The notes below the pieces were generated by a model. It was not told the DNA's origin. It made no database searches and saw only the letters and a list, made by a program, of their open reading frames with translations. DNA of 64,000 nt from Candidatus Gastranaerophilales bacterium. Lineage in GTDB: Bacteria; Cyanobacteriota; Vampirovibrionia; Gastranaerophilales; CAJFVJ01. Shown in pieces: positions 9,954-27,830 of the stretch. The position numbers and the translations under genes were made by a program. Position 1 is the stretch's first letter. Each line of letters begins with the position of its first letter. Location: positions 482,123 through 546,122 of the forward strand of contig CALUSR010000001.1 of NCBI GenBank assembly GCA_944323485.1. Reading direction: 5' to 3'.

Positions 9954-10874
9954 ATGTCTAACTTAAAGGATATAAAACAGAGAATAAAGAGTATTCAAAA
10001 TACCAAGAAGATTACTCAGGCAATGAAGATGGTGGCTGCTGCAAAGGTAAAAAAAGCCGAGAATGCGGTAAAATCAGCAAGACCATACTCTCAGAACATC
10101 AGAAATGCTTTTGCAAAAGTCTTGAAGAGTTCTCCATCTTTTGATACATCGAGCATGAAATTTGCCCACGCTATCGAAAACTATCCTGAGTTGATGAAAC
10201 ACCGTGAAATAAATACGGTCGGTATCCTTCTCATTACTTCTGATAAAGGTCTTGCAGGCGCATACAACGCAAATCTCGTAAGGCGTACAATTCAGAGAAT
10301 AAAAGAGTTGAAATCAGAAGGTAAAGATGTAAAACTCTTTATCGTCGGGCAAAAAGGATTTGTCGCTCTGAAACGTGTTGTAGAGCAGGAAAATGTGGAA
10401 ATTCTTGGAACCTACACAAAACTTCCTCCGCTGATTACGGTTTCAAATGCAAATGTAATAGCTGAAGACATTGCCCACAGCTATGTTGAAGCACAAATAG
10501 ATAAAATTGAAATCATTACAACCCGTTTCAAATCAATGCTCTCATTTATTGTTGAAAACTGGGATATTCTTCCTGTTCTTGCTGTCGAGGAAGAGAAAAA
10601 ACATGAGCTTGAACCCGAGATGATGTTTGAACCATCAAGCGAAGAAGTCTTGAAAAAGATAGTTCCCATGTATGTTTCAAACAGTGTCTATCAGGCGCTT
10701 CTTGAAGCTTCTGCAAGCGAGCTTGCTTCCCGTATGGCTGCTATGTCAAATGCGTCAACAAACGCTGATGATATGATTCGCTCACTCACTGTTGACTACA
10801 ACAAAGCACGTCAGGCAGCGATTACACAGGAAATTTCGGAAGTCGTCAGCGGAGCTGATGCCCTCAAAGGCTAA
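9954..10874 (+). CDS. atpG: F1 ATP synthase subunit gamma
   Basis: KITQAMKMVAAAK; SELASRM.AM.NA..NA; RQAAITQEISEVVSGA. Confidence 0.97.
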   Translation: MSNLKDIKQRIKSIQNTKKITQAMKMVAAAKVKKAENAVKSARPYSQNIRNAFAKVLKSSPSFDTSSMKFAHAIENYPELMKHREINTVGILLITSDKGLAGAYNANLVRRTIQRIKELKSEGKDVKLFIVGQKGFVALKRVVEQENVEILGTYTKLPPLITVSNANVIAEDIAHSYVEAQIDKIEIITTRFKSMLSFIVENWDILPVLAVEEEKKHELEPEMMFEPSSEEVLKKIVPMYVSNSVYQALLEASASELASRMAAMSNASTNADDMIRSLTVDYNKARQAAITQEISEVVSGADALKG

Positions 10875-10892
10875 ATTTCAAAAACTAACTGC

Positions 10893-10926
10893 AAAAAAGA
10901 CGGATATTCATCATCCGTCTTTTTTT
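10893..10926. terminator. Bidirectional intrinsic terminator
   Basis: AAAAAAGACGGAT-ATTCATC-ATCCGTCTTTTTT between convergent genes. Confidence 0.85.
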
Positions 10927-11380
10927 AGTCAACAAGCTCGTCTTGTTTTTCACATGTTTCATATATAAAATATTTTGCTTTTTTATTCTGCAAAAGCATT
11001 TTGTTCAGCATTTTTCCGTCTTTCAAATATACATAAGCAAGAAGCCGTCCGTAAGAGTCCCTTTTGTTTTCTTCAAATTCGAGGTATACCATATCATCTG
11101 GCTTAAGCTCTTTTTGAACATAATACTTTGCAAGTTTTCCGAGTTCCACAACTTTTTCGACGGTAATTTTTTCAGTGTAAGCCTGTTTGTATGCTCTGTT
11201 GTTCGGATATGTTTCATAGCAGTCGACCCCGAGAAGCCTTACAGTTTCCTGTTTGTTGTCTATCAAAACTTCTATCGTGTCGCCATCTGTGACTTTAATG
11301 ACCTGAGCTTCTATTTTCTCAGCTGCGAATGCTGGAGAAAAATATAGAAGAATTAATACTATTAGAAATATTTTTTTCAT
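10925..11380 (-). CDS. Secreted thermonuclease (SNase-like) family protein
   Basis: Signal peptide; V.KV.DGDTI.V, VRLLGVD..E and D.YGRLLAYVYL.DG.MLN..LL motifs. The C-terminus looks shorter than in typical members. Confidence 0.85.
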   Translation of the reverse strand: MKKIFLIVLILLYFSPAFAAEKIEAQVIKVTDGDTIEVLIDNKQETVRLLGVDCYETYPNNRAYKQAYTEKITVEKVVELGKLAKYYVQKELKPDDMVYLEFEENKRDSYGRLLAYVYLKDGKMLNKMLLQNKKAKYFIYETCEKQDELVD

Positions 11381-11397
11381 TAATTAACCCTTTAATA

Positions 11398-11423
11398 GTG
11401 CTTATTTAGCAGTGGTGCTTATT
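11398..11423 (+). promoter_or_regulatory. Conserved 26-bp upstream motif, copy 1 (putative operator/promoter)
   Basis: GTGCTTATTTAGCAGTGGTGCTTATT, 24/26 identical to 11679-11704 and at the same distance from the following ATG. Confidence 0.6.
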
Positions 11424-11447
11424 AAGTATACCATATACCCTAAAATT

Positions 11448-11666
11448 ATGGAAATAGATGAAATATATAGAAAAATTGGAAATAATATAAAAAAATATCG
11501 TTTGTATGCAGGGTTAACGCAAGAACAGCTGTCAGAAAAAATTAATGCTAACCAAAAATTTATTGGGCATGTTGAAAGAGTTGAAAGATATATTGGTCTA
11601 AAAAAAATAATAAAAATTTCAGAAATATTGGGTGTTCCTCTAAAAAAATTTTTTGATTTCGACTGA
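11448..11666 (+). CDS. XRE-family HTH regulator (controller-protein-like), 72 aa
   Basis: IG.NIKKYR..AGLTQEQLSEKI...FIGHVER HTH_3 pattern. I chose ATG 11448 by alignment with the paralog. Confidence 0.85.
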   Translation: MEIDEIYRKIGNNIKKYRLYAGLTQEQLSEKINANQKFIGHVERVERYIGLKKIIKISEILGVPLKKFFDFD

Positions 11667-11678
11667 GTATTCTGTATG

Positions 11679-11704
11679 GTGCTTTTATAGCAGTGGTGCT
11701 TATT
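11679..11704 (+). promoter_or_regulatory. Conserved 26-bp upstream motif, copy 2
   Basis: GTGCTTTTATAGCAGTGGTGCTTATT. Confidence 0.6.
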
Positions 11705-11728
11705 TATCAGAAAATATACTCTTTATTT

Positions 11729-11944
11729 ATGGAATTGGATGAAGTATACAGGCAAATAGGCAAAAAATTGAGACAATACAGGCTTGAGGCAGGTATGACG
11801 CAGGAAGAACTTGCTGAAAAAATTGATGCAAATTCTAAGTTTGTCGGTCATGTTGAGCGTTTTGAGCGGTGCATAAGTTTAAAGAAATTAGCCCAAATTT
11901 CAAATGTTTTGTCCGTTCCTTTAAAAAATTTTTTTGATTTTTAA
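11729..11944 (+). CDS. XRE-family HTH regulator, 71 aa, tandem paralog
   Basis: 46/71 aa identical to 11448-11666 by manual alignment. Confidence 0.85.
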   Translation: MELDEVYRQIGKKLRQYRLEAGMTQEELAEKIDANSKFVGHVERFERCISLKKLAQISNVLSVPLKNFFDF

Positions 11945-12080: not shown

Positions 12081-12106
12081 ATCGCTCTGAGCGTAGGCGA
12101 AGAGCC
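12081..12106 (+). repeat. REP-like palindromic unit (degenerate CGTC type)
   Basis: atcgctctgagcgtaggcgaagagcc matches the window consensus GTCAyTyTGAGCrnAGCGAArwrTCT. Confidence 0.55.
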
Positions 12107-12108
12107 AT

Positions 12109-12274
12109 TTTTTGTTCATTTCTTTCTTTTTGTTGCGAGCAAAAAGAAAGAAACGCAACCAAAGAAAGAAAAACCGCAATCAAAACGAAATCTTGAATTT
12201 TTTTACTGAAACTTTGAAAAGTCGCTGCGCTCCACAAAGTTTCGACAAAAAAATTCTGCTTTCGTAGCCATTAG
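12109..12274 (+). repeat. ~165-nt structured dispersed repeat, copy A (candidate ncRNA or non-autonomous element)
   Basis: Colinear with 27558-27721; two hairpin domains and a purine mirror repeat. Confidence 0.8.
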
Positions 12275-12305: not shown

Positions 12306-12388
12306 CGTCACTCTGAGCGAAACGAAGAGTCTTTTGCTCGCAAGAATTCTTCCGTCACTCTGTTCTCTTGGAATGATGTGGGGTTATT
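12306..12388. repeat. Inverted pair of CGTC-type REP-like units
   Basis: CGTCACTCTGAGCGAAACGAAGAGTCT ... AGAATTCTTCCGTCACTCTGTTCTCTTGGAATGATG. Confidence 0.65.
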
Positions 12389-13970: not shown

Positions 13971-13992
13971 ATTTTCTCCGATAGGGGAAATA

Positions 13993-14066
13993 TGTCCACG
14001 ACAGGAGTCGAACCTGCGACATTTACCTTAGGAGGGTAACGTTCTATCCTTCTGAACTACGTGGAC
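13993..14066 (-). tRNA. tRNA-Arg (anticodon CCT)
   Basis: GTCCACG acceptor stem, anticodon arm TTACC-CTCCTAA-GGTAA, GTTCGAC T-loop. CCA is not encoded. Confidence 0.95.
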
Positions 14067-14069
14067 ATA

Positions 14070-27237: not shown

Positions 27238-27465
27238 ATGGAAATAAATAATTGGTCAAACAAAGAAATAATAAAATTATTAACGGCAAGAGCAGGTATA
27301 ACTCAAAAGAAGTTGTCAGAGCTTTTGTGTGAGAAGTTTTCTAAAGAATATTCTTCAAGTAATTTTTATCATAAAATTTTAAAAAATAATTTAAAATTAG
27401 AGGAACTGCAAGCTATCTGTGAAGTGCTCGGGTATAACCTTCTTTTGGAGAAAAAAGAGAAATAG
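27238..27465 (+). CDS. Small HTH (XRE-like) DNA-binding protein
   Basis: IKLL..RAGITQKKLSELL.......S..N...K..KN.LK.EEL..IC..LGY.L pattern. Confidence 0.75.
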   Translation: MEINNWSNKEIIKLLTARAGITQKKLSELLCEKFSKEYSSSNFYHKILKNNLKLEELQAICEVLGYNLLLEKKEK

Positions 27466-27477
27466 TCTTTATTTATA

Positions 27478-27503
27478 CGTTACTCTGAGCACAGCGAAGA
27501 GTC
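27478..27503 (+). repeat. REP-like palindromic unit
   Basis: CGTTACTCTGAGCACAGCGAAGAGTC. Confidence 0.65.
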
Positions 27504-27557: not shown

Positions 27558-27721
27558 TTTTGTTCATTTCTTTCTTTTTGTTGCGACCAAAAAGAAAGAA
27601 ACGAACAAAAGAAAGAAAAAGCGCAGCCAAAACGAAATCTGGAATTTTTCTCCTGAAACTCTGAAAGTCGCTGTGCTCCACAGAGTTTCAACAAAAAAAT
27701 TCCGATTTCGTAATCTGTTAG
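27558..27721 (+). repeat. ~165-nt structured dispersed repeat, copy B
   Basis: Colinear with 12109-12274; compensatory change in the GAAACTCTG/CAGAGTTTC stem. Confidence 0.8.
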
Positions 27722-27748: not shown

Positions 27749-27830
27749 CCGTCATATAGAGTGCAGGTGAAATATTTCTTTCAACAACTACAAAAAGATT
27801 CTTCGGTCACTGCGTTCCCTCAGAATGACG
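27749..27830. repeat. Inverted pair of CGTC-type REP-like units
   Basis: CCGTCATATAGAGTGCAGGTGAAATATTT ... AGATTCTTCGGTCACTGCGTTCCCTCAGAATGACG. Confidence 0.6.

Follow-up and report, generated by a model that had tools for sequence, protein, structure and literature searches.

Two intergenic sites in a 64,000-nt stretch of a Candidatus Gastranaerophilales genome (the window) carry a pyrimidine tract, the purine tract that pairs with it and then a second purine tract that is the mirror of the first. The question raised by this locus is whether the mirror tract is an accident of low sequence complexity or the third strand of a fold, and, if a fold, which strand would form it and what it would serve. 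Judging from comparison of sequences, we think it probable that the tracts belong to a module selected to fold, when single-stranded, as an intrastrand triple helix, best on the complementary strand, and that this module rides on MITE-like repeats.

The repeat and its copies in the window

Both sites lie in copies of a 158-nt repeat, delimited by alignment of four genomic copies and by BLAST against their own genome. Copy A (window 12110..12267, + strand) begins with the triplex module and continues into a long second hairpin. The 5′ strand of a base stem, P1, together with a junction A (GTTC plus A, 12114..12118), pairs with G12155 and A12157–C12159, leaving C12156 bulged. Tract 1, the pyrimidine strand TTTCTTTCTTTTT (12119..12131), is followed by the hairpin loop G-TTGCGAG-C (12132..12140) and by tract 2, the purine strand AAAAAGAAAGAAA (12141..12153), its Watson-Crick partner. 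The linker CGCAACC (12154..12160) supplies the junction, the P1 3′ strand and a single C ahead of tract 3, the candidate third strand AAAGAAAGAAAAA (12161..12173), which is at once the mirror of tract 2 and the parallel complement of tract 1. The tail CGCAA (12175..12179) is complementary to the loop bases TTGCG (12133–12137) and is a candidate clamp, with a modest family-wide signal. The second hairpin (12185..12265) is genus-specific and lies outside the triplex module.

Copy B (27558..27713, + strand) has the same layout: GTTC plus junction A (27562..27566) pairing with GAAC at 27603–27606, tract 1 (27567..27579), tract 2 (27589..27601), the linker CGAACA (27602..27607), tract 3 as an exact mirror (27608..27620) and the second hairpin (27632..27711). 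Alignment of the copies showed a compensatory change in the second hairpin, CTTTG/CAAAG vs CTCTG/CAGAG. The pairing and the mirror that the first-pass annotation had read from the sequence are thus present at both sites, with tracts 2 and 3 matching as mirrors at 13/13 positions in each copy; its remark that the linkers differ (7 nt in copy A, 6 nt in copy B) while the mirror does not change also holds.

The window's genome (8 contigs, 36.5% GC, 2.05 Mb) contains four intact and three shortened copies of the 158-nt repeat by BLAST. The module makes up the first ∼70 nt and the second long, A/T-rich hairpin the remainder. A detector for a pyrimidine/purine hairpin plus mirror tract of at least 9 nt with at most one mismatch found four modules in the real genome, all of 13 nt and all within the 158-nt repeat; ten first-order Markov genomes yielded one 9-nt module in total. 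The 13/13 triplet register occurs in all four intact copies. Because the copies inside this genome share descent, it is other genomes that carry the evidential weight: there the Gs stand at different positions, and the mirror changes with them.

In the shortened copies (C1:143753-143809, C1:145250-145296 and C1:597134-597177 of the window's genome, G000), tracts 2 and 3 are merged into a single purine run, e.g. AAAAAAGAAAGAAAAAA, and two of the three also lack the second hairpin. These are evidently slippage deletions between tracts 2 and 3 by way of their common AAAGAAAG core. The architecture is lost in three of seven copies, so individual copies are not strongly maintained.

Copies A and B both lie between convergent genes, following small XRE helix-turn-helix genes and preceding a TPR gene and queA. 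Copy A comes after two XRE-type genes in tandem (11412-11666 and 11693-11944, 84 and 83 aa), copy B after a third and weaker one (27238-27465); the other two intact copies have no XRE neighbour. As candidate partners these genes were rejected: they adjoin 2 of 4 copies in this genome, but elsewhere lay within 800 bp of the module at only 5 of 138 loci. A guide RNA of a TnpB/IscB-type nuclease was likewise considered and rejected, the adjacent − strand genes being those for the TPR protein and QueA. Immediately upstream of the TPR gene is a tRNA-Arg (CCT) gene (13992-14067, − strand), beside which no integrase or island boundary was seen; the idea that the repeats are att sites of an island at this tRNA was dropped, since repeat copies elsewhere show no island logic.

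Other features of the neighbourhood may be recorded here. Short REP-like units, GTCACTCTGAGCG...GAAGAGTC and GATTCTTCGGTCACTGCGTTCCCTCAGAATGAC, flank both 158-nt copies (12083-12107, 12308-12336, 27476-27503 and 27798-27830), and the same units occur in the sister species G001 at the site that is without the 158-nt repeat. A staphylococcal-nuclease-like gene region by copy A (window 10443-11296 against G001:C1) is 97% identical between the two species, compared with only 87% for the flanking TPR gene, and the helix-turn-helix genes in between are swapped for a different one in G001. The nuclease-like region looks like a small, recently exchanged islet.

Distribution and carrier elements

A BLAST search of 40 related genomes showed that outside the genus only the first ∼66 nt, the hairpin and mirror tract, are conserved, at 80–91% identity. 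The module was present in 20 of 41 genomes, with 1–34 BLAST matches per genome, a count in which palindromic copies can match on both strands. Across the class, 15 of 151 genomes carried it, representing 9 of 82 genera, and its presence varies even inside one genus. A pattern scan using one genome per species returned at least 120 stretches; taxa among the matches listed include Gastranaerophilales, Melainabacteria, Vampirovibrio, Megamonas, Sulfurovum and other Campylobacterota, Bacteroidales, Cytophagales, Eubacteriales, Oscillospiraceae and Peregrinibacteria. The carriers of the ∼70-nt module are gut and environmental bacteria, among them many Gastranaerophilales and members of at least five other phyla. 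One of the hosts is Megamonas hypermegale, a species with a named strain, ET432.

The usual arrangement is an inverted pair of modules, with hairpins outward and third tracts inward, 140–481 bp apart (23 pairs). Such pairs make up non-coding MITE-like elements of 280–620 bp with the modules near their ends. In genome G036, a 16-nt inverted repeat encloses each of five copies that are near-identical over ∼380 bp. Genomes G005 and G016 have one module within elements of 270–470 bp that carry 24-nt terminal inverted repeats. The interiors of these carrier elements (G036, G005 and G016) are unrelated, and the module is the sole part they share. Two side observations concern the G036 element: its interior (loci L023-L027) has five perfect 7–10-bp hairpins in series, with copies differing in the loops only, and the stretch between its outer 16-nt inverted repeat and the module is hypervariable (4–8 nt), the rest being ∼98% identical.

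The repeats are mobile and patchily distributed. At the site orthologous to copy A, the sister species G001 has no element and a different helix-turn-helix gene; the copy B site is occupied in G001, at 89% identity. Being small, non-coding, multi-copy and differently present among relatives, the elements fall under the usual description of MITEs. No terminal inverted repeats were recognisable in the alignment of the 158-nt copies of the window's genome, and no clear target-site duplication was found around the elements. Nor did we find an autonomous element: no inverted pair encloses a transposase, and the only two wide module pairs are separate elements beside ordinary genes. The RAYT-type Y1 (IS200-like) transposase PF01797 is absent from G000, G001, G016, G036 and G039, genomes with 12–34 BLAST matches each. 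Both this family and DUF559 (PF04480) were discarded as partners, as both are missing from copy-rich genomes and neither correlates with the module. Carriage by phages was rejected, with only 3 matches among 2.9 million viral contigs. Orientation relative to flanking genes showed no bias, at 22:20 for all modules and 14:14 for single modules. Given the patchy distribution, the empty copy A site in G001, the decay by slippage and this lack of orientation bias, the repeat looks like a mobile, selfish one.

Three-way covariation

A covariance model combined with a flank-independent detector gave ∼195 non-overlapping copies of the module, 168 of them distinct. The C positions in tract 1 vary, producing at least 33 G/C patterns. 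These include T3CT3CT5, T4CT3CT5, T3CT3CTCT4, T7CT5, T3CT4CT5, T3CT6CT4, T6CT2CT4, T2CTCTCTCT5 and T3CT4C2T3. Tract 3 complements tract 1 in parallel orientation in every family, and hence is the mirror of tract 2 and not its direct repeat. In 140 parsed copies, counting positions 4 to n and leaving out the three positions fixed by the search pattern, T-A pairs were opposed by A in tract 3 in 965 of 1009 cases, and C-G pairs by G in 239 of 267.

Coupling was measured by pair-counting, with position i of tract 1 and position i of tract 3 entered as crossing 'pairs' and compared with 500 shuffles and with slid controls. At positions 4–7, 96.8% of these were complementary, against 80.7% when shuffled and 68–76% when slid; 144 cells had changed on both sides, against 47.6 in shuffles, and none of the 500 shuffles reached the observed value. 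At positions 8–11 the corresponding figures were 84.6% and 68.5%. For comparison, the Watson-Crick hairpin with P1 was 92.6% paired, with double changes in 14 of 16 pairs. The coupling of tract 1 to tract 3 is no looser than the Watson-Crick coupling of tract 1 to tract 2. Mean mismatches were 0.76 for the mirror, 2.01 for a direct repeat and 2.49 for permuted tracts, and over 49 tract-1 patterns the mirror outperformed the direct repeat in 67 modules and was outperformed in 9, with 17 ties.

We know of no mutational process that produces mirror repeats, and a protein that binds duplex DNA does not read a mirror as an identical site. A third strand folded back onto the hairpin is the natural explanation of the mirror. 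The three-way covariation is strong comparative evidence that fits a triple helix and rejects a two-state Watson-Crick switch. The fold-back triple helix put forward by the first-pass annotation appears to be the sole reading that explains why tract 3 tracks tracts 1 and 2 as a mirror over so many patterns; far from degenerating in homologous copies, the mirror covaries.

The same annotation had offered the switch as an alternative, in which tract 1 would pair with either purine tract. In the window this has some appeal, because the core AAAGAAAGAAA is mirror-symmetric, so that a shift of 2 nt lets tract 3 form 11 bp with tract 1. Elsewhere the family speaks against it. Patterns with three Gs or with unequal flanks, such as TTTCTTTCTCTTTT / AAAGAAAGAGAAAA and T7CT5 / A7GA5, are unable to pair antiparallel with tract 3, and the direct repeat that a switch would need is the one that loses to the mirror in 67 modules and wins in 9, so that we give the switch next to no credence. 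A different view would deny any selected structure beyond that of an ordinary hairpin repeat, with the mirror arising incidentally from low-complexity (AAAG)n sequence or from shared ancestry. The copies in the window's genome do share one sequence, three of them have lost a tract, and Holder et al. found A/T-rich triplex motifs to be frequent in scrambled genomes (PMC4666352). The scrambled genomes of that study were, however, without stems longer than 11 nt (PMC4666352), and our ten simulated genomes had none either. A by-product of this kind should also not have kept its mirror in at least 33 patterns, nor fitted it so much better than permuted tracts do, nor have coupled tracts beyond the reach of all shuffles with a sharp fall in the slid controls; and the lack of any mutational route to mirrors known to us weighs against it as well. 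We regard it as very unlikely.

Base stem, linker and loop-tail complementarity

The pyrimidine/purine stem is bracketed by P1 (4 bp, GTTC/GAAC), with an unpaired junction of 1–2 nt. P1 covaries over the family, appearing as CTTC/GAAG, GATAC/GTATC, GTCTA/TAGAC, GTACT/AGTAC and CTTAA/TTAAG. The linker from P1 to tract 3 is fixed at 1 nt in 116 of 123 copies having an exact P1. The register of tract 3 is anchored to the first pair of the pyrimidine/purine stem, 5–6 bp from where tract 3 starts. The choice between A.C and G.U at the stem junction had been considered as a guide to the strand, but the junction variants CA, CG and CGC show that the junction is simply unpaired.

Bases just past tract 3 tend toward complementarity with the hairpin loop: TTGCG/CGCAA here, GCCTTGAT/ATCAAGGC in Phocaeicola and CGGCAGC/GCTGCCG in a Peregrinibacterium. 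Complementarity of at least 5 bp was found in 20% of copies against 7% after permutation, many copies having only 3–4 bp. The mean was 3.63 bp against 3.08 bp permuted, a weak statistic that is partly due to GCG being common to loops.

Which strand would fold

The complementary (−) strand, folding by the pyrimidine motif, is the best model on present sequence comparisons, although not a settled one. It is favoured by the covarying P1, the fixed 1-nt linker and the weaker loop-tail pairing. Composition also bears on the choice: triples are 83% A.T, C accounts for 17%, and CC dinucleotides number 3 where 8.4 would be expected. T appears in tract 3 opposite T-A pairs at 7 of 1009 positions, and the purine motif permits T.A-T triples (PMC4666352). 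A/T-rich triples with the C:G ones set apart, near-absence of T from tract 3, and P1 with its 1-nt linker together suggest a Y*R-Y triplex on the complementary strand. Among variants with a mismatched hairpin, tract 3 agrees with tract 1 in 15 and with tract 2 in 7, as it should if the strand that the third strand touches is the one derived from tract 1. In the minimum-free-energy fold of the − strand, the U-rich tract remains free. Running counter to the − strand reading, wobble-type hairpin mismatches favour the given strand, with T.G in 11 variants and C.A in 3.

Geometry points to the complementary strand too. In H-type pseudoknots, the deep groove of stem 2 accommodates loop 1, which extends to the 5′ end of that stem, and 1–2 nt suffice to cross 5–7 bp. 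The order of segments on the complementary strand would, by this established geometry, have the topology of an H-type pseudoknot. On the given strand, a chain that exits the base stem at its 3′ end could return only by way of the minor groove, where one nucleotide should not be able to span five pairs.

Folding on the given (+) strand would instead make the module a purine-motif (A.A-T, G.G-C) intrastrand triplex of single-stranded DNA, class II in the scheme of Hoyne and Holder. Its Y-R-R′ order with an exact mirror fits that class, and the published BoxC/TMECO example is a class II DNA triplex (PMC4666352); the excess of T.G over C.A wobbles is also on this side. We nevertheless hold it to be unlikely. 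The tracts are ∼83% A.T, and an A-rich triplex of the purine motif is weak and fails to form in RNA (PMC4666352); T, though allowed by the motif, hardly ever occurs in tract 3; and tract 3 begins 1 nt past the 3′ end of the base stem, from where, by pseudoknot geometry, the major groove would be out of reach in register unless the stem melted. So of the R*R-Y triplex first suggested for this locus, the homopurine mirror with a 6–7-bp spacer stands, while a purine motif on the given strand has become the less likely form. That mirror and spacer are the textbook requirement for H-DNA (PMC4666352), in which the mirror of tracts 2 and 3 alone would drive a fold-back triplex in supercoiled duplex and so affect replication, transcription or recombination. 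H-DNA, however, requires no tract 1, no base stem and no loop-tail pairing. All three covary, which indicates a single-stranded fold, and we consider H-DNA quite improbable.

Proposed fold and its role

In the preferred complementary-strand model, the 55 bases spanning the tracts would form the central part of a module of ∼70 nt, in which a third strand would occupy the groove of a hairpin. The − strand would read 5′-tail′-(T/U-rich third strand)-G-GUUC-N-(pyrimidine strand)-loop-(purine strand)-N-GAAC-3′. The third strand would run parallel to the purine strand in the major groove, forming T/U.A-T/U and C+.G-C triples, 13 here and 9–17 in the family. A single nucleotide would cross the deep groove of the 4-bp base stem, like loop 1 of an H-type pseudoknot, and the 5′ tail would pair with the hairpin loop as an apex clamp.

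The molecule that folds may be single-stranded DNA or, at a somewhat lower probability, RNA, the smaller share that is left falling to both or neither. Single-stranded stages would be available to the element as DNA in replication or transposition, or as its own or read-through RNA. No promoter or intrinsic terminator was found within the element. No known RNA family was recognised, there being no Rfam match in the window, at a permissive threshold, or in 18 loci from other phyla.

The fold would serve the repeat's own propagation or persistence, its structure perhaps being recognised or processed when the element is single-stranded, or acting as a block to a nuclease or polymerase. RNA stabilisation, polymerase pausing and nuclease recognition, the roles named by the first-pass annotation, are candidate functions. 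That it serves a host gene is unlikely, and the lack of orientation bias argues against a role inside host mRNAs. A bolder proposal concerns RNA specifically. Transcripts of the − strand might form an RNA triple helix of 13 consecutive U.A-U / C+.G-C triples (9–17 in the family), with a pseudoknot as its clamp and acting as a MALAT1-like 'paperclip', the A-rich strand being shielded from exonucleases or helicases and the whole spread over at least six phyla by a mobile element. We offer this tentatively, as possible but rather doubtful. If this were so, bacteria would have their first family of long major-groove RNA triple helices. The prokaryotic cases given in a 2026 review of RNA triple helices are riboswitches and group II introns only (PMC13541005).

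Comparison with known systems

The closest precedent is the 'potential intrastrand triplex' (PIT) architecture of Hoyne et al. (2000), as cited in Holder et al. 2015 (PMC4666352), who sorted such elements into ITxF classes. Like PITs and ITxFs, the module has three consecutive homopyrimidine/homopurine blocks on one strand in a triplet-compatible register, belonging to class II when read on the + strand and to class IV when read on the − strand; like them, it belongs to multi-copy, intergenic, strain-variable, rearrangement-prone elements. The ITxF register, A-A-T and G-G-C or, on the complement, T-A-T and C-G-C, allows at most one mismatch in stems of 6–15 nt, and the four intact copies have 13/13. 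Loops are limited to 1–6 nt for ITxF and to 0–10 nt by Hoyne. In copy A the loop has 9 nt, or 7 when its closing G-C pair is assigned to the stem, and the linker 7 nt, values beyond the ITxF range yet within that of Hoyne; the linker of copy B has 6 nt. Hairpin loops of the family mostly exceed the ITxF limit of 6 nt, with linkers of 6–7 nt. The module differs further in being A/T-rich with 9–17 triples, where the tested example is G/C-rich with 9-nt stems, and in adding a covarying base stem, a 1-nt linker, a candidate loop-tail clamp and three-way covariation across phyla.

That tested example is BoxC/TMECO, the one G/C-rich 9-nt family that Holder et al. characterised as a DNA purine-motif triplex and linked to genomic instability; A/T-rich motifs they regarded as largely chance (PMC4666352). 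BoxC/TMECO, from E. coli and other Proteobacteria, resembles the module as a dispersed repeat with a hairpin and a mirror purine tail. Its consensus, CCCTCNCCC N3-6 GGGNGAGGG N3 GGGNGAGGG, is absent from the module, whose sequence is unrelated and A/T-rich and whose likely motif is pyrimidine rather than purine.

H-type pseudoknots such as those of telomerase RNA and the SAM-II and preQ1-II riboswitches share the − strand order S1a - U-rich L1 - S2a - S1b - S2b, and the module's L1 would, like theirs, occupy the deep groove of S2 with U.A-U triples. Theirs are single-copy functional RNAs with 3–5 triples, whereas the module is a mobile repeat, a putative RNA, with 9–17. In ENE/MALAT1 triple helices, too, an A-rich strand is clamped by two U-rich strands with isolated C+.G-C triples, and plant and fungal transcripts of transposable elements carry ENEs as well (PMC13541005). 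The two U-rich strands of the module would be joined through the base stem, whereas those of the ENE are the two sides of an internal loop; the module is also bacterial, lacks a poly(A) tail and has nothing that places it at the 3′ end of an RNA. MITEs and REP/REPIN repeats are similarly small, non-coding, multi-copy, hairpin-rich and patchy between species, often as inverted doublets. The module differs from them in that no cognate transposase was found and in that the 158-nt element has no recognisable terminal inverted repeats.

By its sequence, then, the module is to be placed with the known PIT/ITxF kind, and its A/T-rich, clamped form appears to be new. Intrastrand triplex repeats have been known in bacteria since 2000, hitherto from one G/C-rich example and from motif counts, without comparative proof of a selected fold. 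The A/T-rich family gives such proof, in dozens of independent variants that change all three strands jointly. Its predicted architecture, in which one nucleotide crosses the groove of a base stem and a clamp closes the apex, is undescribed for such repeats in the accounts cited here. The module is also a defined, short and easily synthesised object, with which long natural triplexes in bacterial RNA or single-stranded DNA, the strand that folds and the benefit to a mobile element can be studied.
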